Below, in pieces: positions 13,011 through 28,918 of a DNA stretch of 64,000 bases. The stretch covers positions 1-64,000 of the IMG/VR virus record IMGVR_UViG_3300028831_000395. One strand, 5' to 3'. The DNA comes from a virus. The notes below the pieces were generated by a model that worked only from the letters and a program-made list of their open reading frames with translations, was not told the DNA's origin and searched no databases. How positions within the stretch are numbered: position 1 is the stretch's first letter; every line of letters starts with the position of its first letter. A program made the translations under genes and the position numbers.

Positions 13011-13020
13011 GACCCGCGGG

Positions 13021-13592: not shown

Positions 13593-13654
13593 CCGCTACA
13601 CAGGCGGCTATGACGCCTCCGACGCTCACCGTAACCTCTGTAGCCCAATCAACC
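13593..13654 (+). promoter_or_regulatory. Two degenerate plus-strand copies of the promoter motif
   Basis: CCGCTACACAGGCGGC (13593-13608) and CCGTAACCTCTGTAGCCCAATCAACC (13629-13654), upstream of ATG 13714. Confidence 0.35.
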
Positions 13655-13713
13655 ACACGCGGCGCCGCGTAAACCAACCACGACGCCGCAGGGACACAGG
13701 AGGCATATCTCCC

Positions 13714-14109
13714 ATGCGACACACACACTCTCACAACCCCCCACCCCCCAACCTCAACGCCGACGAACACCCCGCCCTCGCGCCGCCGGGTCGCACGAGC
13801 GGGCACCGCAGGCTAGGCTCAGGGCTTCGCCCGCCTAGCCGCCCGCCGCGGACCCTCGGGTTGATCGGGGCTTTGGCGGGCGTGGTGGTTCTGGTGGGCG
13901 TGCTGCTTGTGGTGGGGGGTGTGGTGTCGGTGCCGGGTTGGTATTCGCCGCCGGTGGAGTACAGCGATGTGGTGCGGTCGCATCCGTGGGTGGCGTCGGG
14001 GCTGGTGTTCGGTGCGGCGCTGTCGGTGTTCGTGCTGTTCGTGTCGGCGGTCGTTTCGTTGCCTGAGCCGCGTGGGCGTGGGCGGCGTGAGGGGGGTGGG
14101 TCGGCGTGA
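13714..14109 (+). CDS. Membrane protein, 2 TM (131 aa)
   Basis: AGGAGG lies 10 nt before the ATG. TMs are LIGALAGVVVLVGVLLVVGGVV and ASGLVFGAALSVFVLFVSAVV. Confidence 0.6.
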   Translation: MRHTHSHNPPPPNLNADEHPALAPPGRTSGHRRLGSGLRPPSRPPRTLGLIGALAGVVVLVGVLLVVGGVVSVPGWYSPPVEYSDVVRSHPWVASGLVFGAALSVFVLFVSAVVSLPEPRGRGRREGGGSA

Positions 14110-14468
14110 TGCGGCTTATCCGGTTGGCTCGGCTGATCGTGTCGCTGCTGATGGTCCTCGTCGGCCTGGTTGGCGGCGGGCGCTCTGCGGCGCCTTCGGC
14201 TCCGGCGTACCCGACGCCGCCGGCGGCCGTTCCGAGCTCGCCGGCCGCGCCGGCGCGGGTTGTGCCGCACGGTCCGACGCCGCACTGCACGACGTCGGGC
14301 GGACCGAGGGCCTCCGACGGTGCGAATCGGTGGGTCGGGGTGTGCTTGGTCTACGGGCAGAGCACGCCGCTTCCCGGCGACTACGCGACGCAGCGCGAGG
14401 CGCGGGCGACGGTGTTCGCGTTCCAGCAGGCGTGGCGCGACGCCGTCGCGAGCGGAGCGCCGCTGTGA
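14106..14468 (+). CDS. Secreted / signal-anchored protein (about 120 aa)
   Basis: N-terminal MMRLIRLARLIVSLLMVLVGLVGG then a Pro-rich linker. Coupled start GTGATG. Confidence 0.55.
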   Translation: MMRLIRLARLIVSLLMVLVGLVGGGRSAAPSAPAYPTPPAAVPSSPAAPARVVPHGPTPHCTTSGGPRASDGANRWVGVCLVYGQSTPLPGDYATQREARATVFAFQQAWRDAVASGAPL

Positions 14469-14740
14469 GCCGGCTGGGCACGGCGATCGTCGTCCTGGCG
14501 GTCGCGTGCGTGGTCCTGGCGGTCGTCGGCGTCGCGACCGACGGGGCGTCGATCGGGACGCTCCTGGTCATCGCCACCGTGGGACTCGCGATCGTCGGCC
14601 TCACCTCCGGTGCCCGACGCGGCGGCGAGTGCGGGCACGTGCCGCCTCCGTCGTTCGGTAGCGACCGGCACGACTGGCGGTGCACTCGCGAGCGTCGCCA
14701 CTACGGCACCCACCGCTATCACCGCCGGGGTGAGGCGTGA
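14465..14740 (+). CDS. Membrane protein, 2 TM (91 aa)
   Basis: GTG in a GTGA overlap. TMs are TAIVVLAVACVVLAVVGVA and TLLVIATVGLAIVGL. Confidence 0.5.
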   Translation: MSRLGTAIVVLAVACVVLAVVGVATDGASIGTLLVIATVGLAIVGLTSGARRGGECGHVPPPSFGSDRHDWRCTRERRHYGTHRYHRRGEA

Positions 14741-15222
14741 GCCTCCGAAGGCGCATCGTGACGCTGCTGTTTGCCGCCTGGTGCGTGTGGGGGTACCTGA
14801 CGCTCGTGCCGGCCGTGCCGCGCGCGGACTGCGACAAGCAGTCCTCGCCGGTCGCGATCAAGGTCAGCGTGTCGCGGTACCCCGAGAACTGGCGGCACAT
14901 CGTGGACGCCCGCCACGGCCGCAACACCGTCGGCGGCACGAAGGTGATCGACGACGGCCTGCGGTGGCCGGTCGTGCTGGTCAAGAACGACCAGGGCGAG
15001 GACCAGCGTCGGCAGGCCGCGTTCCGGCTGGCCGGTCTCGCCGGGAAGACGAAGGCCGGCAAGGCACGCGACGAGTACCCCCCCGCTGAGGGTCGATCAA
15101 CGAACGCCGCGGACATCCGGTTCGTGAACGCGCGGCAGAACAGCGCACAGGGCGCGAGCATGGGTGGCCAGCTCCGCAGGTGGTGTAACGGCCAGACGTA
15201 CAAGCTGGTGGCCGCACCGTGA
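14737..15222 (+). CDS. Exported NucA/NucB-type deoxyribonuclease-like protein
   Basis: Signal/anchor IVTLLFAAWCVWGYLTLVPAV. Family-like string RYPENWRHIVDA...RRQAAF...ARDEYPPAEG...IRFVNARQNSAQGASMGGQL. Confidence 0.65.
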   Translation: MSLRRRIVTLLFAAWCVWGYLTLVPAVPRADCDKQSSPVAIKVSVSRYPENWRHIVDARHGRNTVGGTKVIDDGLRWPVVLVKNDQGEDQRRQAAFRLAGLAGKTKAGKARDEYPPAEGRSTNAADIRFVNARQNSAQGASMGGQLRRWCNGQTYKLVAAP

Positions 15223-15749
15223 AGTGGTTTGGTGGCCGGGCCCGTCCCGAGGAGGGTCCGGCCGCCCCGCATCACGTGCATCTCACGAAGCCGCCGTGGG
15301 CGACGTCGTCGCGCATGTCGGGCGGGGTCCTGAAGGGCTCAACGCCGCAGGAGCGCGCGCAGAAGGGAATCGATCAGCGCGACCGCGAGCGCGTGCAGGC
15401 GCTCAGGAAGCGCGCGAGCACCGCGGGGTACGCGGCGTATTGGGCGGCTCGCAACGCCGCCCGGGCGCTCGACACCGCCAACCGCGCGCAGCTGCGCGCC
15501 GACACCGCAGGGGCGTCGGAGGAGCAGCAGATCAAGCTCGAGGCCGCCGTCGATTCGACGCGTCGAGCGCACGGCCGCTGCGACGACGCGTCGAGGCGCG
15601 CGCGGTCCGCGGCGAAGCGCGCGACGGCGCTCACCGGCGGGCGCCTGCTCGGCGCGGTACACGAGGCCGAGGCGCACAAGGAGGTCGCCGCCCGGGCGCT
15701 GCACGAGACGAAGGCCGCCGCGGCGGCCGCGGTCAAGCACGCGAGGTAG
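15219..15749 (+). CDS. Hypothetical all-helical protein (176 aa)
   Basis: GTGA-coupled. Ala/Arg/Glu-rich predicted long helices. Confidence 0.45.
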   Translation: MKWFGGRARPEEGPAAPHHVHLTKPPWATSSRMSGGVLKGSTPQERAQKGIDQRDRERVQALRKRASTAGYAAYWAARNAARALDTANRAQLRADTAGASEEQQIKLEAAVDSTRRAHGRCDDASRRARSAAKRATALTGGRLLGAVHEAEAHKEVAARALHETKAAAAAAVKHAR

Positions 15750-15751
15750 CC

Positions 15752-17332
15752 GTGGAGTTCTTGCTGACCATCGTGGCGCTCGCGCGGTTCGTGTTCGACA
15801 CGGTCTTCTTGATCGGGCGGGCGGCGTGGGATCACCCGGGGCGCGCGGCGTTCGTGCTCGCGTTCGCGGGCCTGGCCGCGCTCTTCGGCGTGTACGCCGC
15901 CGTCGGTGCGGTCCTGGACCTGATCATCGCCGCGGTCGTGCTGCGGTGGACGCGCAAGCGATGGTGGTTCCGGCTCGTCGGGTGGTGGTGGCGGCCGACG
16001 TGGCGTCGCTGGCGGCACTACGAGCTGCGGTGGCGAGCCGTGATGAAGATGTGCTGGCTGTCGACGGTCGTCGATAACGGCCTCGACGAGTTCCCGCTGA
16101 TCGGCAAGGTGCAGGTAGGCCCGTTCGGCGACGTCCTGCTCGTGCGTGTCCTGATCGGGCAGAAGCTCGCCGATTGGGAGGACCGGGTCGACGAGCTCGC
16201 TACGGCGTGGGGCGCGCAGTCGGTCCGCGCGTTCCCGCACTACCGCGACAAGGCGTACCTGCGTCTGGCGCTGCTCGAGGGCGCCGAGGGTACCCGTCGG
16301 CGCGTGCGCCCGGTGATCCGCCGAGACGGCCCGAAGCGGGTGCCCGGGATCGTGCGGCTAGAGGTCGCCGTGAAGGACCCGCTGTCGGTGCCGGTGCCGC
16401 CGGTGCCGATCCCCGCGACGTCGTCGCAGATCACCTACGAGGCGATCCCGGTCGGCCTGACGGAGAACGGCACGACGTGGACGCTGAAGGTCCGCGGCGC
16501 GCACATCCTGATCGCCGGCCTCACCGGGTCCGGGAAGGGCTCGGTGTTCTGGGCGATCCTGAAGGGCCTGGCGCCGGGGATCAGGGACGGCATCGTCGAG
16601 GTGTGGGCGATCGACCCGAAGGGAGGCATGGAGCTGTACACCGGGCGGCCGCTGTTCACGCGCTACTGCGACTCAAGCGAGGCCGCTATGGCGCAGCTGC
16701 TGGCGCAAGGCGTGACGGAGATCGATCACCGCACGCAGCGCCTCAAGGGCGCGACGCGCAACCACACGCCGACGGTCGAGGAGCCGCTGATCGTGATCCT
16801 CGTCGATGAGTTCGCGTCGCTCATGGTCCCGAAGAGCTCGAGCAAGGAGGACAAGGCGGTCGCCGAGGAGGCGAAGGCCGCCGCGACGATGATCGTCAAT
16901 AAGGGCCGCGCCGTCGGCGTCGTGCTGATCGGGGCGCTGCAGAACCCGCGCAAGCAGGTCGTGGACATGCGCGACGAGTTCCCCGAGCGCGTCGCTATGC
17001 GGCTGCTGTCGGCCGACTACACCGACATGATGTTCTACCGCGGCGCCGCACGGTCGGGCATCCGCTGCGACCTGATCCTGCGGTCGCTGCCGGGCACCGG
17101 GTACGCCTGGTCAGACGACGCCCGCGCGATCGTGAAGGTCCGCGCCGCGTACGTGGACGACGACGAGATCCACGCCCTCGCGCTCGAGTACCAGCCGCCG
17201 AGGGGACCGACGACGATCACCGACGCCGAGCTCGCGGAGTGGCTCGACAAGATCAGCCACGAATCGCACATCGACGAGGTCCTGCACGAGATCGAGGCGA
17301 GCGCCGACGTCGAGGCCGGCGCCGACGACTAG
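15752..17332 (+). CDS. Membrane-anchored FtsK/SpoIIIE-family DNA translocase (TraB/TraSA-like)
   Basis: GTG 15752 lies just after the upstream TAG. Two N-terminal TMs and a W/R-rich segment RWTRKRWWFRLVGWWWRPTWRRW. Walker A GLTGSGKGS, Walker B LIVILVDEFA, and LIGALQNPR. Confidence 0.8.
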   Translation: MEFLLTIVALARFVFDTVFLIGRAAWDHPGRAAFVLAFAGLAALFGVYAAVGAVLDLIIAAVVLRWTRKRWWFRLVGWWWRPTWRRWRHYELRWRAVMKMCWLSTVVDNGLDEFPLIGKVQVGPFGDVLLVRVLIGQKLADWEDRVDELATAWGAQSVRAFPHYRDKAYLRLALLEGAEGTRRRVRPVIRRDGPKRVPGIVRLEVAVKDPLSVPVPPVPIPATSSQITYEAIPVGLTENGTTWTLKVRGAHILIAGLTGSGKGSVFWAILKGLAPGIRDGIVEVWAIDPKGGMELYTGRPLFTRYCDSSEAAMAQLLAQGVTEIDHRTQRLKGATRNHTPTVEEPLIVILVDEFASLMVPKSSSKEDKAVAEEAKAAATMIVNKGRAVGVVLIGALQNPRKQVVDMRDEFPERVAMRLLSADYTDMMFYRGAARSGIRCDLILRSLPGTGYAWSDDARAIVKVRAAYVDDDEIHALALEYQPPRGPTTITDAELAEWLDKISHESHIDEVLHEIEASADVEAGADD

Positions 17333-17375
17333 GTCCGATTGCGTAGGAACGGCAGGCGTCATCACCGCGCATTGC

Positions 17376-17984
17376 CTACGAGCGCGCTTCGTCCCACGTC
17401 AGGATCACGCGGGTGCGGTAGATGCCGCGCGGCGACGCCACCGGGTCGATCGCCATCGTCAGCACCCAATCGCGGTCCTTGTCATCCACGAGCCAGCCGC
17501 CGGTGTAGGCGCGGTGCTGGTAGGTGAGCACGCGGTCAAGCTCGGGGTCCTGGTGCCGCGGCCCGGTCAGCGCGTCGCCGACGGCCTTGGCGATCACCGG
17601 CCGGCGGTTCTCGCTCTCCTGCTCGTCGGGGCGCGGGTAGGACACGACGAGGTGCACCCACAGCGGGCGGAGCGCCGGGACGGGGCGCGTGAGCACCGCG
17701 CCGGGCCCGTAGCTGAGCGCGTCCATCGCCCGCATGAGCTCGCCCTGCCACGACCCCTTCTCGGCGTGGAAGCCCTTCCAGCTCGACCGGATCGCGTTCA
17801 GGTTCACCGACGACGGCGCGCCCGGCAGCACGAACGCGACGCGGCGCCGGCGCATCGCCGGCGTGTCCGCGATCAGCCCGAGGTCCCGTGAGGCGTGCCA
17901 CCACAGCGCGCCCAGCGCGCCGTCCGTCGCCGCGATGCGACGCTCAAGCTCCGCGAGGTCGTCGCCGACAAGGGCGAGCGTCAC
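17376..17984 (-). CDS. RusA-like Holliday-junction resolvase candidate (202 aa)
   Basis: GTG in a GTGA overlap. FVLPGAPSSVN ... ENRRPVIAKAVGDALTG ... GGWLVDDKDRDWV resembles the RusA DxDN..K..DAL..DD pattern. Confidence 0.45.
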   Translation of the reverse strand: MTLALVGDDLAELERRIAATDGALGALWWHASRDLGLIADTPAMRRRRVAFVLPGAPSSVNLNAIRSSWKGFHAEKGSWQGELMRAMDALSYGPGAVLTRPVPALRPLWVHLVVSYPRPDEQESENRRPVIAKAVGDALTGPRHQDPELDRVLTYQHRAYTGGWLVDDKDRDWVLTMAIDPVASPRGIYRTRVILTWDEARS

Positions 17985-18238
17985 GACAGGATCAGCTGCG
18001 CCGGGCTGCGCCCCAGGGTGCGGGCCGGTGCGGGGTCGAGGCTGTGCCACATCGCGAGCGCGGCGTCCCGCGGGCTGCCGGTGACGCCCTGCACGCGCTC
18101 AGGGCCACGCCAGGCGACCCAGAACCACTCCGGCTCCCAATCCCGGGGCAGGGCCTCGGCGGGCCACCTGACGATGTCTATGAAGCCGCCGTGGTGCACG
18201 GTGCCCCACGCTGCGCAGTAGTCGCGACGGCGGCGCAT
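17981..18238 (-). CDS. Trp-rich hypothetical protein, paralogue B (85 aa)
   Basis: MRRRRDYCAAWGTVHHGGFIDIVRWPA..WEPEWFWVAWRGPERVQGVTGSPRDAALAMWH. Paralogue of 8105-8392. Confidence 0.6.
   Translation of the reverse strand: MRRRRDYCAAWGTVHHGGFIDIVRWPAEALPRDWEPEWFWVAWRGPERVQGVTGSPRDAALAMWHSLDPAPARTLGRSPAQLILS
18044..18139. repeat. 96-bp perfect direct repeat, copy B
   Basis: Identical to 8189-8284. Confidence 0.9.
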
Positions 18239-18240
18239 TC

Positions 18241-18933
18241 TTACGCGACGGCGTGGTAGATCGCCGTGATGAGTGGCGCGAGGTCGCTGTAGTAGTGCGC
18301 GGCGACGCTGCCGACGATGACGACGGGGCAGAGCTTGCGCAGCTTCGCCTCGTCGCCATCGTCGATCCAGTGCGGCTTGTCGACGATGTGCAGGCGCTCG
18401 CGGCGCCACGGTCCGAGCATCGGTGAGCCGAGCATTGTGAAGCCGTCTAGGAATGAGTGCAGGGCGCAGCCGATGAACACGCCGAGCGAGGCGAACATGC
18501 CTCCCCACGCGGCGACGGTCCAGACCTGCGTGGGCATCGCCGCGTCCGATCCGGCGTGCTCGGCGAGCGTGACGCCGATGAACCCGACGCCGACGATCGC
18601 GCCGAACGTCAGGACGCCGAGCAGCAGCGCGATCGCGAGCCCGACGGACAGCCAGTGCGTCCACGAGCGGTGGACCTGCAGCTTGCGTAGCCGCCGGTCG
18701 AGGCGATCGTAGAGCCGGCTCGGCTTGCCCTTGCGCTCGACGTGGCGGGCCTGGCGCTTGCGGACGCGGCGCCAGAGCGCGCGCGGCGCCTTCTCGAGGC
18801 GGTCGGGCCACGGCGACGCGATCGACGCCGCAGCGATCGGGATCGCCCACCACACGACGGGCAGCGCGAGCGCTGCGCAGACGACGGCCGCGCCGGCGCC
18901 GCCGGCCGCGGCGTGCGTGTCATTGCCGGGCAC
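18241..18933 (-). CDS. Polytopic membrane protein (230 aa)
   Basis: At least 4 hydrophobic helices; HSFLD motif. Confidence 0.6.
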   Translation of the reverse strand: MPGNDTHAAAGGAGAAVVCAALALPVVWWAIPIAAASIASPWPDRLEKAPRALWRRVRKRQARHVERKGKPSRLYDRLDRRLRKLQVHRSWTHWLSVGLAIALLLGVLTFGAIVGVGFIGVTLAEHAGSDAAMPTQVWTVAAWGGMFASLGVFIGCALHSFLDGFTMLGSPMLGPWRRERLHIVDKPHWIDDGDEAKLRKLCPVVIVGSVAAHYYSDLAPLITAIYHAVA

Positions 18934-19237
18934 GACGAACCCTCGCGAGCAGTCCGCGGCGCGCCGCCGGCGCGGTGAGCGGTGGGATCGCCTCGAGCGC
19001 CTCGAGCACGGCGACGAGCGCGAGGCGCGTGCGGGCCGTGAGGTCGAACAGCTCGACGAGGTCGGGCTCGGAGTGGAAGCACACCCCGAGCTTCGTGAGC
19101 TCGTGCGCGTCCGGTGACACGGTCGGGTCGACCTCGAGGTAGCTGTGCACGAAGTCGTTCGCGCTCGCCGCCGTGGCGATGAGGTCCGGCAGCAGCTCGG
19201 CGAGGCGCGTGACCTCGTCGAGGGTCGGCTTGCGCAT
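18920..19237 (-). CDS. Hypothetical protein (105 aa)
   Basis: Start at MRKPTLDEVTRLAELL (19237); 1-nt TGATG overlap. Confidence 0.5.
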   Translation of the reverse strand: MRKPTLDEVTRLAELLPDLIATAASANDFVHSYLEVDPTVSPDAHELTKLGVCFHSEPDLVELFDLTARTRLALVAVLEALEAIPPLTAPAARRGLLARVRRARQ

Positions 19238-19665
19238 CACTTCTCCGCGGCCTCTAGGACGTAGAACTCGACGGCGCCGGGCGCATCGGGCTTGCACGGC
19301 TCCCACGGGCAGAACTCGCATCGCATGCCGGCGCCGTTCTCGTCGTCGAGGTCCTCGTCGCCGGTGCTGTCGATGAGCCACTCGCCGTCGCCGGTCAGCG
19401 TGGCGAGAGGTCGCCACCACTCCCGCTCGTCGGTCAGCACGAGCTTGACGTCGTCCGGCACGATCGTGCCGTAGCGGTCGAGGTGCTCGACGGCCGCTCG
19501 TGCGGCGGCCTCAAGCCCGCCGGTCGCACGGATCTCGGCGTAGTCGTCGCCCTCGATGAGACGGACCGGGGCGTAGGCGTGCGTCTCGATCATCCCTTCG
19601 TCGGGGGTATCGACTAGCAGGTATGGCTCGTCGTCGTGCGGCCACCATTCGGGACTCGAGATCAT
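19237..19665 (-). CDS. Hypothetical acidic protein (142 aa)
   Basis: Clearly protein-like (MISSPEWWPHDDEPYLLVDTPDEGMIETH...). Confidence 0.6.
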   Translation of the reverse strand: MISSPEWWPHDDEPYLLVDTPDEGMIETHAYAPVRLIEGDDYAEIRATGGLEAAARAAVEHLDRYGTIVPDDVKLVLTDEREWWRPLATLTGDGEWLIDSTGDEDLDDENGAGMRCEFCPWEPCKPDAPGAVEFYVLEAAEK

Positions 19666-20006
19666 CGGGGGTTGGCCTCCTTACAGTTCGCGGCGTGCTC
19701 GTCGGTCGAGCCGGGTCGGTCCATGTGCGGCATGCCGCCGCAGCACCACAGGCGCTTCGGCACGGGCTCGGCGCCGAGCACGATGCGCCAGCGCGGCGGC
19801 AGCTCGTCGAACGGCCCGAGCACGACGACGTCGCTGAGCGTGCATGCGTCGTGATCGGTCTCGTCGAGGAAGAGGTGCGCGGCGTCCGTGATCGCCTCCT
19901 CCTCGTCGGGCGCCTCGAGGAACGCGGCGTGCCCGATCTGCGTTGGTCCGCCGCCGGGATCGGCCGTCGTGACGAGCCACAGCCGCAGCGGGTTTGGCTC
20001 CGTCAT
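19662..20006 (-). CDS. Hypothetical protein (114 aa)
   Basis: ATGA-coupled on both sides. Confidence 0.55.
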   Translation of the reverse strand: MTEPNPLRLWLVTTADPGGGPTQIGHAAFLEAPDEEEAITDAAHLFLDETDHDACTLSDVVVLGPFDELPPRWRIVLGAEPVPKRLWCCGGMPHMDRPGSTDEHAANCKEANPR

Positions 20007-21919
20007 GGCCGGCGCTCCGCGATCTTGTCGGCGTACAGCAGGTAGGCGGGGTGCACGCGCCGGCTGCGCTCCTCGACGAGCCCGAGCGTCTTGAGCTTGC
20101 TCAGGTTCGTGCGGAAGCTGCCGCCGCGGGAGTCCGCGAGCCGCTCGAGTTCGGCGCGGGTGAAGCCCTTGCCGGCGGGCCCGGAGCGCAGCACGACGTC
20201 GAGGACGCGGCGCTGCCCGGCGACGAGCTTGCCGATGTGCTTCGCGATGATCTCGTCGCGTGTCCAGGGCACGCCGACGGCGTCCTGCAGGCCCATCTCG
20301 CGGTCGGCGTAGACGTCGCCCTTGTGCGTGAGCGCGGCGCGCCCGTCGGTCTCCTCGACGAGCCCGGCGGTCTTGAGCGTCGAGAGGTTCGTGCGCATCG
20401 ACCCGCCGTAGGTGTTCGCGAGCGTCTGCAGCTCGTGCCGCGTGAGCGACCCGTAGCGCGCGAGCGCCTCGACGATGCGGCGCGCGCCGGCGACGAGGTC
20501 GGGCCCGGTGCCGTTCGATGTCGCGGCTCTCGCCGGCGACGGGTCACGCTTGACCCGCGGCAGCTCTTCGGTCGGCTCGCGCCGGCGCGGCGGCGGCGGG
20601 CGGCGTGCCTCCTCGTCGGCGCGTGGGAGCGCCGCGATCTCCGCGCCGAGGCCCCCGACGCTCTTCGACAGCGCCGTCGCGGCCTCGAGCAGGTCGGCGA
20701 CGTGCGTCTCGACGTCGTCGTGCGCAGCGCTGACCTTGGCGATGTCGACGGGCGGTCGGTCGAGCAGCTCGCGGACGCGGTCGAGCACCTCCTCGTGGCG
20801 ACCGGACGCGCCGGGGTCCAGGCCGAGGACTGCGGCGATGTCGTCGAGCTCGCCGCGCGAGAGGTTGCGGTCGGCCTGCGCCGCCTCGACCTCGGCGGCG
20901 GCTTCCCGTAGCTCGCTCTCCGAGACCGCGTCCTCGCGTAGGCGCTTGATCTCCCGCTCGAGGTCGGCGATCTGCTCCTTGAGCAGCGTCGGATCGTCGG
21001 CCTTGGCCTCTTCGATCGTGTCGGCCATGAGGTCGCGCAGCGCCTCGAGGTCGGCCTGTGTGTGCGCGGTCGGCACGATCGCCGACTCGCCCGGCGCGAC
21101 GGTCCGGGAGCTGTCGAACGTCTCTTTGGGGCGGATGCGGAAGACGCCCTCGATGCCGAGCGTCGGCGCTGATACGCGCGCGACGCCGCGCTCCAGGCCG
21201 ACGACCTCGGCGCGGATGGCCTTCCAGTCCTCGCCGACGTTCTCGACCCAGCCGCGGAGCTGCGCGAGGTCGTTATTGCCGCGCAGGCGGTGCGCGAACA
21301 TGATCTCGCACAGCTCGAGGACGTCCTTGTGCAGCTTCGCGAGGCGCTGCGTGATAACGAGCACCGACATGCCGCGGCGACGGCCGAGCGCGACGGCGTC
21401 GACCACGGCGCCGAGGCATCGCGCGACGTCGCCGCCCTCGTCGCGGACCGCTTGCGGCGCGAAGCGGTGCGCCTCGTCGATGACGATGAGCACGTGCCCG
21501 CGGATGACCTCGTAGAGCTCGGAGAGGTAATCGCCGACGAACCGCTGTCGCGCGGCCCATGAGCGGAAGTGCGGTCGGTCGAGGTCGAGAACGGGACTGA
21601 CGCCGTGCTCGGCCGTGAGACGCGCGACGGCGCGGCCGGCGGAGTCGTTGAGCGGGATCTCGCCGTGCTCGCCGCCCATGACGACCATGTCCAGGCCGGC
21701 GCGCTTGCCGTCGGCGGAACTCGTGACGCCCCACCATGCGCCGGACGGGTCGATGACGACGACCTGCACGCCGGCCTTGCGTGCCTCCTCGACGACGACG
21801 ACCGCCGTCGAGGTCTTCCCTGTGTCGGTCTGACCGACGACTGCCGTGCGACGCGTCACGAGCTCGAGCGGCAGCGTGAGATCCTCGCCGAGGCGCAGGG
21901 CCTGCGCGGAGGCCGTCAA
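20003..21919 (-). CDS. HerA/FtsK-superfamily (DUF87-like) ATPase with coiled coil and two C-terminal winged-helix repeats
   Basis: Proposed TTG start (TTGA overlap). Walker A VVGQTDTGKTS, VVVIDPSG, Walker B LIVIDEAHRF, VLVITQRL. The C-terminus has two copies of ..TRxELxxLA...GGSxRTNLSxLKTxGLVEE. Confidence 0.7.
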   Translation of the reverse strand: MTASAQALRLGEDLTLPLELVTRRTAVVGQTDTGKTSTAVVVVEEARKAGVQVVVIDPSGAWWGVTSSADGKRAGLDMVVMGGEHGEIPLNDSAGRAVARLTAEHGVSPVLDLDRPHFRSWAARQRFVGDYLSELYEVIRGHVLIVIDEAHRFAPQAVRDEGGDVARCLGAVVDAVALGRRRGMSVLVITQRLAKLHKDVLELCEIMFAHRLRGNNDLAQLRGWVENVGEDWKAIRAEVVGLERGVARVSAPTLGIEGVFRIRPKETFDSSRTVAPGESAIVPTAHTQADLEALRDLMADTIEEAKADDPTLLKEQIADLEREIKRLREDAVSESELREAAAEVEAAQADRNLSRGELDDIAAVLGLDPGASGRHEEVLDRVRELLDRPPVDIAKVSAAHDDVETHVADLLEAATALSKSVGGLGAEIAALPRADEEARRPPPPRRREPTEELPRVKRDPSPARAATSNGTGPDLVAGARRIVEALARYGSLTRHELQTLANTYGGSMRTNLSTLKTAGLVEETDGRAALTHKGDVYADREMGLQDAVGVPWTRDEIIAKHIGKLVAGQRRVLDVVLRSGPAGKGFTRAELERLADSRGGSFRTNLSKLKTLGLVEERSRRVHPAYLLYADKIAERRP

Positions 21920-22269
21920 GACGTCACCCCGCGCTCTTCCGATTCGGGGTCGGTCCCGATGCCGCAGCCGCACGCGTCGGCGAAGTCGTCGGGCGGCGGG
22001 ATGCTCGGCGCGTCCTGTCGGCCGAGGCGCCCAGGTACGACGTGCACGACGAGCGCCGGCGTGCTGCTCATGTGATGCCTGATCCAGCCGTCCCATCGGA
22101 CGCTGAACGGGTGATCGCTGATCCGTACCGTGTGCGAGTGCCCGCCGAGCGCGTGGCAGTCGCCGCGCGTGCACAGCGGGAGACGCGGCGCGTCGTTCGG
22201 GATGCCGCCGTGCCAGACCTCGACGACGGTCGGGATCTGCGCGGGCGCTGCGAGGAGCACGCCCGTCAT
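21916..22269 (-). CDS. Cys/His-rich hypothetical protein (117 aa)
   Basis: CTRGDCHALGGHSHTV ... ACGCG. ATGA-coupled on both sides. Confidence 0.5.
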   Translation of the reverse strand: MTGVLLAAPAQIPTVVEVWHGGIPNDAPRLPLCTRGDCHALGGHSHTVRISDHPFSVRWDGWIRHHMSSTPALVVHVVPGRLGRQDAPSIPPPDDFADACGCGIGTDPESEERGVTS

Positions 22270-23141
22270 CGGAGCGCTTCCAGCTCGAGCAGTGGGTTTC
22301 CGAACTCGTCGGCGCGGCCTTCCCACTCGCGCAGCGCGAACACGCCCGACGAGACCTTCACGAACTCGCCGTCGTCCTTGTCGCTCTTGACGAGGTGACG
22401 CACGATCGTCTGCTCGGGCCGGGCGCCCTTGTAGAGCTTGTCGCCGCCGTTCTCCATCACCCATGCGGCGATCCGCTTGTAGTGCATCGGCTGCTCGGAC
22501 CACTCAAGCGCCCTGCGCATGAGCGCCGCGCCCGGCGACGCCGCGGCGCGCAGCGCGTCGCGGTCGGCCTGGACCTCGGCGAGCTGCCGGCTCATCTCGG
22601 CGACGACCTCGCGGGAGTCCTCGCGCAGCTCGACGACCTTGCGCACGAGCGCGAGCAGGTCGTCGCGGTCCGCCGTCGGCCAGTCGGCGGTGTGGTCGCC
22701 GAGGGTCTGCTGCAGCATCTCTACGGCGTCGCGGACGGCGCGCGGCGTGTTCTGCGCGGGCAGCGCGGGGGTGCCCTCCAGCTTGGCGAGGTCCTTGGCG
22801 TTGGCCCAGATCTTCTCGACGGCGGCGAGCATCCTGGGCACGATGTCGGCCTCGGCGATGACGGGCCCCGCGGCTTGTGGGTGCGCCTTGCCGTCGGGGC
22901 GGTGGTTCATGCCGGCGCGCACGCCGAGCAGGGTGTAGGCGTAGCGGCCCTTCTTGAGGAGCACGCCGTCGGTCACGATGTAGCCGTAGCGACGCATGTC
23001 CTGGATGCGCTGGTGGAACGCCTGGACGCCCGGGACCTGCCCGAGCTGCACGTTGGTGAGGGTGCGGTCGGGCGCCGCCATGAACGCGTTGAGCACGCGC
23101 TCCCAGCCCGGGACGCGGGGCGGATCGGTCGGGTTCGGCAC
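22266..23141 (-). CDS. HARE-HTH domain protein with N-terminal winged helix (291 aa)
   Basis: GTG start after promoter motif copy 6. C-terminus MHYKRIAAWVMENGG...RPEQTIVRHLVKS...FVKVSSGVFALREW is HARE-HTH-like. Confidence 0.6.
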   Translation of the reverse strand: MPNPTDPPRVPGWERVLNAFMAAPDRTLTNVQLGQVPGVQAFHQRIQDMRRYGYIVTDGVLLKKGRYAYTLLGVRAGMNHRPDGKAHPQAAGPVIAEADIVPRMLAAVEKIWANAKDLAKLEGTPALPAQNTPRAVRDAVEMLQQTLGDHTADWPTADRDDLLALVRKVVELREDSREVVAEMSRQLAEVQADRDALRAAASPGAALMRRALEWSEQPMHYKRIAAWVMENGGDKLYKGARPEQTIVRHLVKSDKDDGEFVKVSSGVFALREWEGRADEFGNPLLELEALR

Positions 23142-23166
23142 GTCGGACCTCCGGTCAGGATTGCGA

Positions 23167-23191
23167 GGGGTTGCGCAACACAGTGTAGCGC
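23167..23191 (-). promoter_or_regulatory. Conserved phage promoter/leader motif, copy 6
   Basis: Minus strand reads GCGCTACACTGTGTTGCGCAACCCC. Confidence 0.6.
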
Positions 23192-23213
23192 AACCCGGCG
23201 GATGCGATCCGTC

Positions 23214-24176
23214 TCAGGTGGCCAGCAGATGCGCGGTCGGCGTGGGGATCTCGTCCCAGGTGCGGCCGTCGAGCTCGCGGCCGTGCGACGTCGAGTTCGC
23301 GCCTCCCCACTGCTTGAAGAAGAACGCGGTGCCGCCCTCCTGCTCCTCGGGGTGCCCGGCTCCGCAGCGGTAGCAGAACACCTCGTGGTAGCGGTTCAGA
23401 TCGCCGCACTCGCAGCACCAGTCCCGCGTGGTGCACGCGTCGCGGAGGTCACGGATCCACCCCAGCTTGTGCGGCACGGGGACGCCAGCCTCATCCACGA
23501 GGCGTCTGCCGATGCGCCCGCCGGACTCGCCGCCGGCGATCAGCCAGTCGATGCCGCCGAGATGTAGCTCAGGTCCATCTCGGTCGTCGGCCCAATGCGT
23601 CATGCCGTCCCCGGCCATCGCGTCATCGCTCGGCTCGCCCGGGTCGTGCGCGTCGTGCAGTAGCGGCCCGAGCAGCGGCTCGGCGGAGATGAACCGGCGT
23701 ACAGCCGGGACGGCGCGCAGCATGTCGGCGCGGTCGACCTGGCTGCGGGTGCCGATCGTGACGCCCATCCACACGTTCGGCCAGCCGTCGCCCCAATCGG
23801 CGGGGAGGTGCTCGAGGATGCGCTCGGGGCGGCTCGTCAGGATCTGATACGTCGACCCTGGGGTCTGGCGGATGATGTCCCACGCCTCGTCGCGCCACTC
23901 GTCGGCGTCTGCGTGAAACCAGTCCGACCAGCTGCACGTGAACACGAGGTGCTGGCCGTGCTCGGCGACGCAGCGCTCGCGGACCTCCTCCCACTTGCGC
24001 GACAGCGGCATGCGGAACACCGGCCGGCTGCAGCGCGTCACGACGGACGGGTCGCGGCCGTACCGGCGCTGCGCCGTGAACATGTAGCACCGAGCGCACG
24101 TCGGATCGACCTTCGTGCAGCCCCGCCAGGGGTTCCAGGTGCTGTGCGTCCAGGCGATCGCCGTCTTGAGACCCAT
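23214..24176 (-). CDS. Phage Gp37/Gp68 family protein (DUF5131)
   Basis: N-terminus TAIAWTHSTWNPWRGCTKVDPTCARCY is the family signature. Confidence 0.8.
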   Translation of the reverse strand: MGLKTAIAWTHSTWNPWRGCTKVDPTCARCYMFTAQRRYGRDPSVVTRCSRPVFRMPLSRKWEEVRERCVAEHGQHLVFTCSWSDWFHADADEWRDEAWDIIRQTPGSTYQILTSRPERILEHLPADWGDGWPNVWMGVTIGTRSQVDRADMLRAVPAVRRFISAEPLLGPLLHDAHDPGEPSDDAMAGDGMTHWADDRDGPELHLGGIDWLIAGGESGGRIGRRLVDEAGVPVPHKLGWIRDLRDACTTRDWCCECGDLNRYHEVFCYRCGAGHPEEQEGGTAFFFKQWGGANSTSHGRELDGRTWDEIPTPTAHLLAT

Positions 24177-24683
24177 CTACGCGTCCTCTCCCTCTCGTGG
24201 TGACATGACCTCCGCGGCGGCGACGATCTCTACGCCGAGCTCGAACAGCGCTCGTGAGATCGGCTCCCCCCCGACGCGCGAGGTGTACTCCTGGTAGGCG
24301 CGGTCGAGGAGTTCCGGGTCGTGCATGACGGTCGTGGCGGGCCCGAACTGCAGGGTGCCGGTGGCCTCGTCCTCTCGGGTGCGCTGCCCGGTGCCCTTCG
24401 GGACGCGTCCGTGGCCGCCGCAGTGCTCACACCTGACAGCGGCGTTGCCGGGATGCCCGTCGTCGCAGTGCGATCCGTCGCCGTGGCACTCGTCGCACTC
24501 GTCGCTGACGGCCATGAGCGTGTCGTACGTGCCGACGGGGTTGGACTCGCGGCCATGGCAGGCAAGCGCGAAGTACACCGCGGACGCGGGCAGCTCGCTC
24601 ACCGCGCCGATGCACGAGTCGATTCCGCTCGCGGCCCATTCCTCGAGGTCGCGGCGAACATCGATGAGGCTCTCATCGTTCAT
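24177..24683 (-). CDS. Protein with DnaJ-type CxxCxGxG zinc-finger motifs (168 aa)
   Basis: CDECHGDG and CEHCGGHG. Confidence 0.55.
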   Translation of the reverse strand: MNDESLIDVRRDLEEWAASGIDSCIGAVSELPASAVYFALACHGRESNPVGTYDTLMAVSDECDECHGDGSHCDDGHPGNAAVRCEHCGGHGRVPKGTGQRTREDEATGTLQFGPATTVMHDPELLDRAYQEYTSRVGGEPISRALFELGVEIVAAAEVMSPREGEDA

Positions 24684-24942
24684 GCTCCACCTCTCTGGTC
24701 GTGTCGTCTACCTCGCCTGCGTCGTGTAGGCGCTCCCACTCGAGGTCGAGCGGGGTGGGGTACGTCTCGCCGCCGCCGCCGCGCACGGCGTGCGGGGTGC
24801 CGAACTCGCTGATCCGCATGAGTGTGGGCCCGTCGACTGGCACGTCCACGATGACGCGCCCGCCGTCGCGGTGGTCGGCGTAGATGCCCTTCGTGACGCC
24901 GCCGGCCCAGAGGATCTCGACGCGGTCGCAGGAGTCCATCAT
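24673..24942 (-). CDS. Hypothetical protein (89 aa)
   Basis: Start at MMDSCDRVEILW, ATGA-coupled. Confidence 0.5.
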   Translation of the reverse strand: MMDSCDRVEILWAGGVTKGIYADHRDGGRVIVDVPVDGPTLMRISEFGTPHAVRGGGGETYPTPLDLEWERLHDAGEVDDTTREVEHER

Positions 24943-25259
24943 GTCCCGCCGAGCGCGCAGGGACGCTTCTCGCGGCCACCCTCGGCCTTGCCGTGGTAGG
25001 CGCCGCAGGAGCACAGGTAGACGCGGTGACCGGCGTAGACGAGGCGCCCGCCGGTGTGCTCGTACAGCGCGCAGCCGCTGCGTGGTTCCGACGCGGTCGT
25101 GCCGCCGACGGAGAACACGGGGCGTTGCCCGAGCAGCGGGCGCAGGACGCCGGCGTCGGTGGTCAGCTTGCGCGAGACCCACGTGTACTTCCCGGCGGTC
25201 GGTGTGACGGCGAACCCGTCGAGCGGGCCGCCGTCGCAGGTGAGGGGTCCTCTAGGCAT
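24939..25259 (-). CDS. Hypothetical protein (106 aa)
   Basis: Protein-like; CSCGAYHG. Confidence 0.45.
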   Translation of the reverse strand: MPRGPLTCDGGPLDGFAVTPTAGKYTWVSRKLTTDAGVLRPLLGQRPVFSVGGTTASEPRSGCALYEHTGGRLVYAGHRVYLCSCGAYHGKAEGGREKRPCALGGT

Positions 25260-25398
25260 CGCGGTTGACGACCTCCCACCTGCACGACCCGCAGAACGGG
25301 CAGCGGGTCGTGCGGGTGCGCATCGCGTGGACGGTCGAGACCCACGGGCTGCAGCACTCCTGCGCCAGGCAGCGCAGGCCCAGCATGAGCAGCGCCAT
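25252..25398 (-). CDS. Small Cys-rich protein (48 aa)
   Basis: MALLMLGLRCLAQECCSPWV...RCPFCGSCRW. Confidence 0.4.
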   Translation of the reverse strand: MALLMLGLRCLAQECCSPWVSTVHAMRTRTTRCPFCGSCRWEVVNRDA

Positions 25399-25400
25399 CG

Positions 25401-26375
25401 TCAGCCGACGATCGCGGCGAGCTTCTCGCCGACGCCGTCGCCGCCCTCGGCGATGACGCGCTGCACCTCCTCGTGACGCTCGGCCAGGTCCGGCCAGCGA
25501 CGCTCGGCCCACGCGACGAGCTGGTCGGCGCGCTCGACGAGGTCCTGCCCGCGGTAGTGCGAGGCGAGCTCGAGGACGCGCGCGGGATCGTCGTAGAGGC
25601 CGTCGTGGGCGCGCTCGACGATCTCGGTCAGCAGGCGCGGCAGGTCGTCCTCGGCGGTCTCGAGCGCCTCGCCGGTGCCGCGCAGCGACCGGATGATCTG
25701 TCGTGCGGCGGCGACGGCGCTGTCCTCGGCGTTCTGGTCGACGGCCTTCGTCTGGGCGGGCGCGAGGACGCGCGCGTCGGGCTTGCGCATGTCGGCGGCG
25801 AAGACGATGCCGTTGAGGACGAAGACGTCCTGGCCGGTCGAGTCGTCCTTGCGCACGCGGATGACGCCGAAGCGCTGCCGGCTCCGGACGGAGAACTTGA
25901 CGAGCATCGCGGCCTTCTCGTCGCGCAGCGCGCGCATGATCGTGCGCATGGGGCGGTCGAAGCCGGGGTCGGGCTGCACGTAGAAGGTGCCCGTCAGGCG
26001 GTCGGTCGGCACGAGGCGGTAGTCGATGAACTCGAGCAGGTCGACGGTGTCGAGATGCGTCGCGGCGTGCGCGTAGTCGATCTCCGACTGCGGGACGACG
26101 CGGAAGTCGTCGCCGACGCGGACGCCCTTCACGGCCTCCGCGATGACCTCGGGCACCTCGACGACCTCGAGGTCCTCGACGGTCGTGGCCTCGGGGTCCT
26201 TCGCCTCGTAGAGCTTGCGGACGCGCTCGGGGTGCGCGTACTGCTGCACGCGCGACGTGCCGTCGGGAAAGGCGGTGTCGAACCTGACGTCGGTCGAGCC
26301 GGTCGCGGCGGCGATGCCGACGGGGATCTTGAGCAGCTCGCCGAGTACGAGCGTGGTCCTGGTTACTGCGCGCAT
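25401..26375 (-). CDS. ku: Ku-like DNA end-binding protein
   Basis: LGELLKIPVGIAAATGSTDVRF, VKGVRVGDDFRVV, LEFIDYRLVPTDRLTGTFYVQPD, MRALRDEKAAMLVKFSVRSRQRFGVIR follow the bacterial Ku core pattern. Confidence 0.7.
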   Translation of the reverse strand: MRAVTRTTLVLGELLKIPVGIAAATGSTDVRFDTAFPDGTSRVQQYAHPERVRKLYEAKDPEATTVEDLEVVEVPEVIAEAVKGVRVGDDFRVVPQSEIDYAHAATHLDTVDLLEFIDYRLVPTDRLTGTFYVQPDPGFDRPMRTIMRALRDEKAAMLVKFSVRSRQRFGVIRVRKDDSTGQDVFVLNGIVFAADMRKPDARVLAPAQTKAVDQNAEDSAVAAARQIIRSLRGTGEALETAEDDLPRLLTEIVERAHDGLYDDPARVLELASHYRGQDLVERADQLVAWAERRWPDLAERHEEVQRVIAEGGDGVGEKLAAIVG

Positions 26376-26397
26376 GGCGGTGGCCTCCGTAGCCGTA

Positions 26398-26422
26398 GGG
26401 GTTGCGCCGCAGAGTGTAGCGG
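26398..26422 (-). promoter_or_regulatory. Conserved phage promoter/leader motif, copy 7
   Basis: Minus strand reads CCGCTACACTCTGCGGCGCAACCCC, upstream of ATG 26375. Confidence 0.6.
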
Positions 26423-26497
26423 ACGGGGTCGTCGCAGGCTACCCCGTCGGATGGTGCGTGTGGGTGCACGCAACGGGCGGCGGTAGCGTCTGCGTCC

Positions 26498-26908
26498 ATG
26501 GTCGTCTCGGTCATCGCGGCGGTGTCGAGCAGCATCGGGATACTGATCGGGGCGGCGGTCTCGGTCGGCGGGATGGTCGGCGGCGCGATCGCGTTCGTGC
26601 TCCGGTACAAGCGGACCGATGAGGGCGAGCACGTCAAGCAGCAGAGCCAGGTCCTGGCCGACGCGATGGGCGTCTACGAGAAGCTGCAGCGAACGCTCAC
26701 GCAGACCGAGGAGCAGCTCTCCGCCGCGAAGATCGAGCGTGACGCCGCCAAGGCCGAGCGAGACGCGGCGAAGGCCGAGCGAGACGAGGCGACCGCGGAG
26801 CGCGAGCGGATGCGTGTGCAAGTCGAGTCGCTGACGGCCGAGGTGTCGAGCCTGACCGAGAAGGTGGACACTTTGCAAACGACGCTTGAGCAGGTGAGGG
26901 ACCGATGA
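26498..26908 (+). CDS. Membrane-anchored coiled-coil protein (136 aa)
   Basis: N-terminal TM then heptad-like repeats AKIERDAAKAERDAAKAERDEATAERE. Confidence 0.65.
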   Translation: MVVSVIAAVSSSIGILIGAAVSVGGMVGGAIAFVLRYKRTDEGEHVKQQSQVLADAMGVYEKLQRTLTQTEEQLSAAKIERDAAKAERDAAKAERDEATAERERMRVQVESLTAEVSSLTEKVDTLQTTLEQVRDR

Positions 26909-28275: not shown

Positions 28276-28301
28276 GGGGTTCGTGCCGCAAAGGTTAGCG
28301 C
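28276..28301 (-). promoter_or_regulatory. Conserved promoter/leader motif, copy 8 (degenerate)
   Basis: Minus strand reads GCGCTAACCTTTGCGGCACGAACCCC. Overlaps the stop codon of the RuvC-like gene. Confidence 0.45.
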
Positions 28302-28918
28302 AGCTTACGGTCGCGTGACCACCGGATAGCGGCGCACGTAGCGACGCCGAGACAGTCCGCTTCGTCGTGCGCTCGAGCGGCCTCGTCGCAGGGCCCCTTG
28401 CCCTCGCCGTGACACTTGCGGCAGTCGCCGGGGTACCAGAGCGTCTCGCGCGCCCAGGCGAGGATCGCGGGCTTCTTCGCGAAGCCCCTGCCGGCGCCGA
28501 GCGCGTCGCACTTCCAGCTCGTCGGCTCGACGACGTCGATGCGGGCCGCGGGGAAGGCCTGGCCGAGCAGCGCCAGCGCGATAGCGACGACGTAGTAGCT
28601 CTGCGGGTGAGGCCGCGCTTTGCCCTGTCCGTAGGGCTGCTCGACGAGGACGCCGGCGGGCGGCGCGACGTCGCCCATGCGCTGCAGGAACGGCGGGAGC
28701 GTCTCGAGCAGCCGTGCGAGGCGTCGCGCGGGATCGCCGGCGTGCTGCTCGATCTCGTGGGAGAACCATCCGACCTCGGGCTGCCGGTCGGGGCCGTGGC
28801 CCTGCACGACGCCGACCGCGATCCGCCTCGTCGAGACGTCGAGGCCCCAGACGTTCTCGGTCAGCCGGCACGACAGCGGCGGGACCTCTATGCCCGGCAG
28901 CGTCAGGATGTCAGCCAC
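28295..28918 (-). CDS. RuvC-like Holliday-junction resolvase
   Basis: VWGLDVSTRRIAVGVV (first catalytic Asp strand) and AHDEADCLGVA (DxADA-like) motifs. Confidence 0.65.
   Translation of the reverse strand: MADILTLPGIEVPPLSCRLTENVWGLDVSTRRIAVGVVQGHGPDRQPEVGWFSHEIEQHAGDPARRLARLLETLPPFLQRMGDVAPPAGVLVEQPYGQGKARPHPQSYYVVAIALALLGQAFPAARIDVVEPTSWKCDALGAGRGFAKKPAILAWARETLWYPGDCRKCHGEGKGPCDEAARAHDEADCLGVATCAAIRWSRDRKLR

Follow-up and report, generated by a model that had tools for sequence, protein, structure and literature searches.

What might a phage do with a soluble DNA motor that appears to carry its own DNA-binding domains? This question is raised by a locus in the IMG/VR virus record IMGVR_UViG_3300028831_000395, of which we analysed positions 1 to 64,000 (hereafter the window, a stretch of 64 kb). 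There, three overlapping genes on the minus strand encode a predicted DNA-binding protein with a HARE-HTH domain (P0003), a small Cys/His-rich protein (P0002) and an ATPase of the FtsK-HerA superfamily (P0001). The three open reading frames (ORFs) lie where an initial annotation, made from the letters of the window, had placed them, and all the peptides that it quoted were found: AVVGQTDTGKTS, VVVIDPSG, LIVIDEAHRF, VLVITQRL, the two winged helix-turn-helix (wHTH) repeats, MHYKRIAAWVMENGG, CTRGDCHALGGHSHT and ACGCG. We conclude that the ATPase adds a new architecture to the HerA clade and belongs to a very large mobile-element family. We tentatively favour a role for it as a soluble hexameric translocase or remodeller of double-stranded DNA (dsDNA) that would be tethered to DNA by its own winged helices and would serve early phage DNA metabolism. 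The genes of the locus and the parts of the ATPase are listed here.

22266 to 23141, minus strand: P0003, predicted DNA-binding protein of 291 amino acids (aa); conserved wHTH-like domain at about residues 10-75, variable helical middle, HARE-HTH domain at 211-273, conserved tail FGNPLLELxxxR
21916 to 22269, minus strand: P0002, Cys/His-rich orphan protein of 117 aa, translationally coupled on both sides
20003 to 21919, minus strand: P0001, the ATPase, 638 aa
21110 to 21919, minus strand: ATPase core, P0001 residues 1-270
20930 to 21127, minus strand: family-wide post-core segment, about residues 265-330; TFDSS motif, then helices with D290 and an ADDP motif
20753 to 20893, minus strand: helical linker segment of 47 aa, residues 343-389
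20006 to 20512, minus strand: two MarR-like winged helices in tandem, residues 470-638, after a disordered tether rich in Pro and Arg (422-470)

Architecture of the ATPase

The initial annotation had described P0001 as a soluble motor of the FtsK-HerA superfamily with two winged helices at its C-terminus, and Pfam, motif and Foldseek comparisons all support this placement, more exactly in the HerA clade. Of its 23 Pfam matches, the P-loop models DUF87, HerA_C, Zot and TrwB cover residues 11-260 only. Within this core we found a Walker A motif (GQTDTGKTS, residues 29-37), a Walker B motif with the catalytic Glu (VIDEAH, 146-151) and the sequences GRRRG (179-183) and ITQR (189-192), which are a candidate arginine finger and sensor, respectively. 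Indeed, in a phmmer search against the PDB (E 1.5e-7) the stretch GRRRG..ITQR aligned with the arginine-finger/sensor region of HerA, EGRKFG..SQR. Residues G34, K35, E149, G179, G183 and R192 are invariant in an alignment of 22 family members, and R180 and Q191 are at least 90% conserved. The AlphaFold (AF2) model of the full protein has a predicted local distance difference test score (pLDDT) of 81.7, with the core at about 87-97, and its fold retrieves the HerA hexamers 8wj3, 9x1m and 4d2i in Foldseek (E 3e-11 to 1e-10, probability 1.00). The same search returned STIV2 B204 (target-normalised template modelling (TM) score 0.71), PH1 and the corticovirus NTPase, at target-normalised TM scores of 0.71-0.78. 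The HerA-clade marks of Walker A and B with catalytic Glu, arginine-finger loop with polar sensor, and core fold are thus all present.

A HAS barrel, the defining mark of HerA, was not found in P0001: Walker A begins at residue 29, with about 20 residues before the core, and therefore no space is left for one. Matches to HerA profiles start at about profile position 400 of 560, and with the NCBIfam HerA models NF040819 and NF042943 the scores are 37.8 bits where 970 is the cut-off and 32.1 where it is 800. Likewise, P0001 has no hydrophobic N-terminus that could serve as a membrane anchor, and PF01580 is not among its Pfam matches.

Directly after the core comes a segment that is conserved as strongly as the catalytic motifs. 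It contains the TFDSS and ADDP motifs, and T267, D269, D290, D309 and P310 are invariant in the 22 aligned members. HerA has a C-terminal brace that acts between subunits; the TFDSS/ADDP segment may act between subunits in a similar way, or it may dock a conserved partner.

The rest of the protein consists, in the AF2 model, of helices at 291-430, a disordered Pro/Arg-rich stretch at 422-470 and the two winged helices. The long acidic coiled coil proposed by the initial annotation corresponds to the helical region, which is predicted with only moderate confidence before it passes into disorder. The duplicated C-terminal winged helix is likewise there, with repeats of about 70 aa each instead of the 55 first given. 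Modelled alone with 56 homologues, the last 169 residues are predicted to form a rigid tandem winged helix (pLDDT 94.5, predicted TM score 0.87; model m99f187f9df94). Its three-helix bundle and beta-hairpin wing superpose on MarR proteins, which in the model makes it a MarR-type winged helix. For example, VIA-align gave a Z of 11.2 and a root-mean-square deviation of 2.1 Å over 73 residues against MarR 3cjn, and a profile search returned MarR and DtxR proteins (MarR 8ylf, E 9e-6). The partition protein TubR was also among the fold matches (Z 9.9). Both recognition helices keep the sequence SG[TSG]FxN[YN]L[SG]xLR in 56 phages of 33-73% G+C, and since they are conserved in phages of unrelated hosts, the DNA feature that they read is probably generic and not a phage-specific site.

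Spread and neighbours of the ATPase family

To see how far this architecture extends, relatives were sought at several depths. A word-indexed search gave 115 full-length relatives, mostly on contigs of 40-95 kb, and a pattern scan of IMG/VR found the family on 261 contigs of 33-73% G+C. The exhaustive profile search returned 21,806 representatives of 50%-identity clusters at E<=1e-3, and 7,257 at E<=1e-30. Nearly all of the best 150 representatives are full-length, at 545-660 aa, while two are longer (942 and 957 aa). These 150 and the 22 aligned members have in common the core, the TFDSS/ADDP segment, a variable linker and the winged-helix pair. The ESM Atlas clusters have 982, 199, 113 and 82 members and are 79-89% viral. 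Among genomes sampled one per species, prophage copies were seen in Chloroflexota, Planctomycetota, Nitrospirota, Acidobacteriota, Actinomycetota, Alphaproteobacteria, Leptospira and others. The nearest relatives of P0001 are 54-75% identical to it; for the closest two, P0004 and P0005, two metagenome scans yielded nothing.

Plasmids carry the family as well. We found it on 44, mainly from Mycobacterium, Mycolicibacterium, Clavibacter, Tsukamurella, Sinorhizobium and haloarchaea, including plasmids of 100-320 kb with their own replicons, and the copies are annotated as "helicase HerA-like domain-containing" or "DUF87 domain-containing". An FtsK/SpoIIIE or EccB/EccC gene lies within five genes of the ATPase in three of six plasmids inspected (NC_010408.1, which is pCSL1, NZ_CP084587.1 and NZ_LR134455.1). 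On pCSL1 a C5-methylase gene is found near the ATPase, and the window phage has one too. Among 50,697 GenBank phage records a family member occurs in a single one, MW202482, which is metagenome-assembled and annotated "hera helicase". This near absence from cultured phage collections probably explains why the family has escaped study.

The core is 40-64% identical between phages that otherwise share nothing, and the company that the ATPase keeps is mixed. Two genes on each side of it were scanned against Pfam in about 70 further phages, giving 139 upstream and 135 downstream proteins. Upstream, the commonest families occur two or three times each (N6/N4 and C5 methylases, ParB_N, SMC_N, DUF5131, integrase and RecT); downstream there are eight integrases, three ParB_N and three RusA proteins. 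When ORFs within 8 kb were clustered by BLAST, ParB_N was the commonest neighbour (16 loci), together with integrases, DUF5131, C5-methylases, RusA, YqaJ and RecT. SSB is also among the neighbours, and in other carriers terminases of the gpA type lie a few kb downstream. Because these neighbours include no constant partner, we regard the ATPase as a self-contained gene that moves through the early DNA-metabolism region of otherwise unrelated phages.

The gene is not tied to lysogeny. Half of the 14 complete carrier genomes lack a tyrosine integrase, among them the window phage, where none was found in the 73.4-kb genome, and its sister phage L002 (IMGVR_UViG_3300018432_000004; 73,616 bp, with terminal repeats), where the search was equally negative. 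Relative to contig ends the position of the ATPase is bimodal, but it varies among genomes with terminal repeats.

The HARE-HTH protein, the operon and the phage

The initial annotation had suggested that the three genes of the locus could be one functional unit, with partition, replication takeover, anti-defence and inter-phage competition as conjectured roles. The three are not found together in other genomes, a result that the annotation itself had said would refute it: the middle gene is an orphan, and a HARE-HTH domain is present in only 1 of the 139 upstream neighbours. Indeed, P0002 has no match in Pfam, PHROG, NCBIfam or PADLOC and no homologue among 5.8 billion proteins or in IMG/VR. 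It is also missing from L002, the closest sister that could be compared, where the gene order is the same as in the window (Ku, a small gene, DUF5131, HARE-HTH, ATPase) and where a gap of about 90 nt without any gene separates the HARE-HTH gene from the ATPase gene downstream. Judged from these gene orders, P0002 is a lineage-private insertion between two putative partners. In the more distant relative L001/L133, whose ATPase core is 64% identical, DUF5131 directly abuts the ATPase, and neither P0002 nor a HARE-HTH gene is present there. Annotating the three genes of the window as one system is thus not warranted.

The relation between the outer two genes is closer. The C-terminal HARE-HTH domain attributed to P0003 was recovered by PF05066 at residues 211-273 (E 1.4e-8; 35.4 bits against a cut-off of 25.9; profile positions 10-71 of 71), while the conserved N-terminal domain aligns weakly with the first winged helix of the ATPase (hhalign E 1.3e-3, probability 19%), which is consistent with the earlier claim of an N-terminal winged helix and does not prove it. 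Homologues of P0003 number about 21, all from a single lineage of phages of about 70-77 kb, and all but two of those listed carry HARE-HTH. HARE-HTH and ATPase genes occur together in at least three phages, including records of 77,383 and 73,616 bp. Moreover, the 47-aa segment that lies inside the ATPase in P0001, P0004, P0005 and P0006 is found in other sister phages inside the variable middle of the HARE-HTH protein (P0128 and P0136). By BLASTP, P0001 and P0136 are 54% identical over 76 aa (E 2e-18), and P0004 and P0128 are 65% identical over 62 aa (E 1e-17). Such an alternation between two neighbouring proteins would be expected if they formed a complex, and within this lineage the HARE-HTH protein is a probable DNA-binding partner of the ATPase. 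A nuclease or effector gene beside the ATPase is missing from the operon. Sir2, DUF4297 and NurA partners were found neither in the operon nor among the 25 most frequent neighbour families of the roughly 70 loci.

The coupling of the three genes is well supported. The ATGA overlap at 22266-22269 and the TTGA overlap at 21916-21919 are seen in the sequence, and homologues begin at the corresponding point (MT..LRLG), in agreement with the TTG start of the ATPase. In a frame-specific plot, G+C content at third codon positions (GC3) is 0.95 for 22266-23141, 0.89 for 21916-22269 and 0.93 for 20003-21919, against 0.45-0.56 at second positions (GC2). The GC3 plot changes frame exactly at both overlaps; this switch, together with a GC3 of 0.89, makes it very probable that the small middle ORF is translated. 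The operon does not, however, end after three genes, since two more coupled genes follow. For these two we found no family match and no conservation in sister phages. Beyond 19237, further minus-strand genes continue down to about 17376.

The promoter motif noted upstream of the three genes is real and recurs throughout the genome upstream of genes. The copy here precedes the GTG start by 26 nt, and an inverted repeat of 8 bp (GGTTGCGC..GCGCAACC) overlaps it. The 73.4-kb genome holds 9-10 copies of GCGCTACACT..GCGCAACCCC, each at a distance of 25-45 nt from a downstream start codon that has a GGAGG ribosome-binding site, and a 12-mer version has 9 matches where 2.2 are expected, a number reached in none of 100 shuffles. 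The GCGCTACACT-nTGnnGCGCAACCCC motif comes without a -35 element, and consensus scans of 17000-26600 found no sigma-70-type promoter and no intrinsic terminator. The motif suggests a phage-specific transcription factor or sigma-like specificity. The features around the three genes are the following.

23167 to 23194, minus strand: promoter-like motif copy (noted earlier as 23167-23191), core GCGCTACACT at 23182-23191, then GCGCAACCCC
1814-1823, 5788-5797, 10551-10560, 11302-11311, 11397-11406 (plus strand), 23182-23191 and 26413-26422, and genome positions 65149 and 66971: copies of the GCGCTACACT-nTGnnGCGCAACCCC motif
19237 to 20006, minus strand: two downstream coupled genes, 19662-20006 (114 aa) and 19237-19665 (142 aa)
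18241 to 18933, minus strand: YdjM-like inner-membrane protein of 230 aa (Pfam E 1.3e-8), downstream of the ATPase in the same minus-strand string
23214 to 26375, minus strand: operon upstream of the three genes, encoding a Ku-like protein, two small proteins, a DnaJ-type zinc-ribbon protein and a DUF5131 protein
25401 to 26375, minus strand: Ku-like DNA-end-binding protein (Pfam Ku, E 1e-17)

The gene order of the Ku/DUF5131 operon is the same in L002, and a DUF5131 gene flanks the ATPase gene in several unrelated phages as well. After its ATPase, L002 has homologues of window 9965-10324, 9601-9963 and 8389-9204. The stretch from about 10325 to 20000, which holds a TraB-like cassette and the genes just downstream of the ATPase, has no counterpart there.

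The source record is 73,425 bp long, the window being its first part. IMG/VR classes it as having direct terminal repeats, and its CheckV completeness is 100%; the genome is 72% G+C, with almost all genes on the minus strand. The phage is tailed, as its portal, TerL and HK97-type capsid genes show. We take the locus to be the head of an early operon in a complete, 73.4-kb, high-G+C tailed phage. Its identifiable genes include these.

59514 to 61679: portal gene
62658 to 64334 of the genome: canonical TerL gene, directly upstream of the portal gene; matched by 2,105 phage records, its product 38% identical to the TerL of Aeromonas phage 56 across 87% of its length
56132 to 57094: HK97-type capsid gene
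28295 to 28918: RuvC-like resolvase, an early gene
30228 to 31118: O-like replication initiator (phrog_391, E 5e-9), in a different operon 8 kb from the ATPase gene
8389-9204, genome 69641-70765 and genome 71328-73127 (coordinates given jointly): early genes for a DnaQ-like exonuclease, a PAPS-reductase-like protein and a 599-aa C5 cytosine methyltransferase
16481 to 16948: TraB-like gene in a plus-strand cassette, the sole PF01580 (FtsK_SpoIIIE) match in a six-frame search of the genome

The TraB-like gene confirms that the ATPase is the second FtsK-HerA-superfamily motor of this genome. A general tie between the two motors was considered and rejected: PF01580 is present in only 1 of 40 carriers, and the cassette stretch (10-20 kb) is the one without a counterpart in L002. 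For the TerL gene itself no Pfam match was obtained at E<=0.01, and a six-frame search with TerL_ATPase and Terminase_6N was also empty; the profiles have a blind spot for this TerL lineage.

A proposed tethered ring motor, its alternatives and known systems

What, then, might the ATPase do? From the HerA fold and the conserved arginine finger and sensor one would expect an ATPase ring that remodels dsDNA or travels along it, and from the stiff pair of winged helices at the end of a flexible tether, a means of anchoring on DNA or of loading there. On the reading that we tentatively prefer, the core would assemble as a ring, probably a hexamer, with its arginine finger acting in trans. The ring would use ATP to translocate along or remodel dsDNA, and the winged-helix pair, on its flexible tether of 150 residues, would hold or load it there. 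Its role would lie in early phage and plasmid DNA metabolism, that is in handling intermediates of replication, recombination or modification, and not in packaging, initiation or classical defence. In support, the ATPase of the window phage is flanked by the Ku/DUF5131 operon and co-transcribed with early genes, and across the family its shifting neighbours are methylases, ParB_N, RecT, YqaJ, RusA, SSB, DUF5131 and integrases. Several points weigh on the other side. Ring formation, DNA translocation and DNA binding are all drawn from homology and models, and early DNA metabolism is a loose assignment given so variable a neighbourhood. No loading signal of the KOPS or clt kind emerged, since over-represented or skewed 7-8-mers show only codon-driven skew. 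The winged helices could bind protein instead of DNA, and weak tandem matches to ScpB, Nse1/3 and the C-terminal domain of RPA32 point that way; the similarity to the tandem winged-helix "kite" proteins (ScpB, Nse), at a Foldseek TM of only about 0.3, is too low to be of use. The partnership with the HARE-HTH protein draws on synteny within one lineage, where synteny is expected anyway. Finally, we found no paper in the literature that describes the family.

A bolder proposal, which we hold to be possible but doubtful, is that the family forms a distinct, undescribed class: a self-targeting, barrel-less HerA ring translocase with its own tandem winged-helix DNA reader that serves a common step of DNA metabolism and that, in this lineage, is complexed with a HARE-HTH sensor sharing an exchangeable 47-aa docking segment. 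If true, there would be a common, unrecognised step in uncultured phages, temperate or non-integrating, and in large plasmids of actinobacteria and haloarchaea, for example a branch-migration or protein-stripping motor replacing host functions. So far, work on HerA-type motors has dealt with the resection of DNA ends and with the scaffolding of anti-phage systems, and a stand-alone, barrel-less form that brings along its own DNA reader would put the HerA motor to a new use. Thousands of distinct versions exist in environmental phages, prophages and plasmids under no other database label than "DUF87 / HerA-like domain-containing", so that a description of the family would name a common "dark matter" phage gene. 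The plasmids of Clavibacter (C. sepedonicus pCSL1, gene CMS_RS15770), Mycolicibacterium (M. vanbaalenii, gene QQA43_RS30490) and Mycobacterium (M. avium p1-JPH1) offer tractable carriers.

Other functions are less probable. The ATPase might act in counter-defence or competition between elements, with the motor stripping host defence proteins off phage DNA or acting on competing DNA while the HARE-HTH protein senses modification. Methyltransferases, ParB_N-methylase, DUF5131 and PAPS-reductase-like genes do make a neighbourhood of self-protection and DNA modification, the PADLOC HerA and mad8 models match at about 1e-11, plasmid copies stand among toxin-antitoxin genes, and Aravind and Iyer reportedly proposed in 2012 that HARE-HTH reads modified DNA. 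We nevertheless consider such a role unlikely, since the core is conserved (40-64%) and spread too far for a typical fast-evolving counter-defence gene. Its architecture is unchanged on large plasmids and in archaea, it has no effector domain, the PADLOC matches span only the half of the core from Walker B to the sensor, and the NCBIfam anti-phage HerA model scores 32 bits against 800. These PADLOC matches, and the fact that Sir2-HerA and DUF4297-HerA, systems in which HerA ATPases are the scaffold, give the top structural matches, could also be read as signs of a HerA-type anti-phage defence gene borne by a prophage or plasmid. That reading is very improbable. P0001 lacks the HAS barrel, and Sir2, DUF4297 and NurA are not among its most frequent neighbour families (two genes either side, about 70 loci). 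Its gene is also joined by translational coupling to others of an early operon that follows a promoter motif of the phage itself, and the family occurs in non-integrating phages with terminal repeats. The claim that the ATPase is a genome-packaging ATPase or terminase has next to no probability. A phrog_2666 "terminase large subunit" match (E 1e-14) reflects the shared P-loop only, and the PRD1/STIV-type folds (STIV2 B204, PH1, corticovirus NTPase) match the core at target-normalised TM scores of 0.7-0.78. The canonical TerL beside the portal and the HK97-type capsid gene refute packaging for practical purposes; besides, other carriers have gpA-type terminases, and the ATPase has no nuclease domain, lies in the early region and has no TerL Pfam match near it.

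Two further readings treat the protein as serving whole replicons. As a helicase or origin-loading ATPase it would supply phages that have no recognisable helicase, loader or primase, and such families are indeed scarce in 39-40 carrier records: DnaB_C above its cut-off in 4 of 39, DnaC-like (IstB/DnaC-like) proteins in 2-4 of 40, with 2 above the cut-off, D5_N and Prim-Pol in none and O-like proteins in 5, with DnaB in only one of 13-14 complete carrier genomes. An ATPase followed by a winged helix also recalls Orc1/Cdc6 and other initiators. This scarcity, however, was counted in carriers only and may be ordinary for uncultured phages, and DnaB co-occurs with the ATPase in four records. The recognition helices are conserved across hosts instead of being origin-specific, plasmids of 100-320 kb bring their own replicons, and to our knowledge no FtsK-HerA ATPase is a replicative helicase. 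In the window phage the O-like initiator, 8 kb off in another operon, tells against this role, which we judge improbable. The ATPase was rejected as the initiator of that phage in favour of the gene at 30228-31118. This gene and the TerL at 62658-64334 support the view that P0001 is neither a terminase nor a standard replication protein. A helper of segregation or dimer resolution, namely a directional motor like FtsK-gamma or TraB that works with a recombinase or ParB-type protein to separate or move replicons, would fit the tyrosine integrase found no more than two genes downstream in 8 of about 68 loci, the 16 loci of ParB_N as commonest neighbour cluster, the presence on plasmids with FtsK/SpoIIIE or EccC nearby in three of six, and the fold match to TubR (Z 9.9). 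It is quite improbable all the same: half of the complete carriers, the window phage and its sister included, are without a tyrosine integrase, FtsK_SpoIIIE is found in just 1 of 40 viral carrier records, the window phage itself, whose TraB cassette stretch has no counterpart in the sister, and the search for a skewed loading motif was negative. Phage ParB_N genes beside methylases, moreover, are usually not partition genes.

The tethered ring motor that we prefer can be set against several known systems. P0003 shares its HARE-HTH domain with PF05066 proteins such as the RNA polymerase delta subunit, ASXL and the N-termini of restriction enzymes. It differs in having that domain at the C-terminus, after a separate wHTH-like domain and a variable helical region, in lacking an enzyme domain and in its restriction to one phage lineage. 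The ATPase core is alike in size to the minimal packaging ATPases (STIV2 B204, PRD1 P9 type, PH1, corticovirus, A32-like) and, like them, has no barrel, with target-normalised TM scores of 0.71-0.78. Those, however, are stand-alone proteins of 200-300 aa from membrane-containing viruses with double-jelly-roll capsids, whereas P0001 has 370 extra residues and comes from a tailed virus with portal, TerL and HK97-like capsid, which sets it outside the PRD1/STIV/A32 type.

Haloarchaeal "DUF87 + WH_Halo" proteins resemble P0001 in having a HerA-type core followed by a winged helix (ESM Atlas feature scores 0.88-0.89, TM by query 0.55-0.56). A protein of Halobacterium phage ChaoS9 is 28% identical over 210 aa by tblastn, a likeness assessed by the core alignment only, and haloarchaeal plasmids are among the tblastn matches of the ATPase as well. 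HerA itself (HerA-NurA and the Sir2-HerA and DUF4297-HerA scaffolds; 4d2i, 9x1m, 8wj3, 8xau) is like P0001 in the fold of its P-loop core and in its set of motifs, namely Walker A, Walker B, a GR(K/R)xG arginine-finger loop and an (S/T)QR sensor, and this fold and these motifs lead us to expect a ring with a dsDNA-sized pore for P0001. Whereas HerA has an N-terminal HAS barrel and its Walker A at about residue 180, P0001 has no barrel and its Walker A at residue 34. The helical-bundle insert of HerA is absent, as is a nuclease, Sir2 or DUF4297 partner gene, and P0001 has instead a long tether and two winged helices. Kinship with the ATPases of about 910 aa that Patescibacteria encode in operons with a HARE-HTH protein and a membrane protein was rejected beyond the level of the superfamily, because these resemble P0001 only around Walker A (residues 1-60).

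In these last features P0001 resembles FtsK and Streptomyces TraB of the same superfamily, in which a ring motor for dsDNA is joined through a flexible linker to a winged-helix reader at the C-terminus; for P0001 such a build is predicted. The winged helix of FtsK gamma reads KOPS and so targets the motor. P0001 differs from both in having no membrane anchor, no FtsK_SpoIIIE match and two MarR-type winged helices, the recognition helices of which are conserved across hosts, with no skewed target motif found. For Streptomyces TraB, a passage of PMC5365140 describes a C-terminal DNA-recognition motif, a winged helix reading clt, that guides the FtsK-type motor, and by analogy the winged-helix pair of P0001 may guide its ring in a comparable manner.

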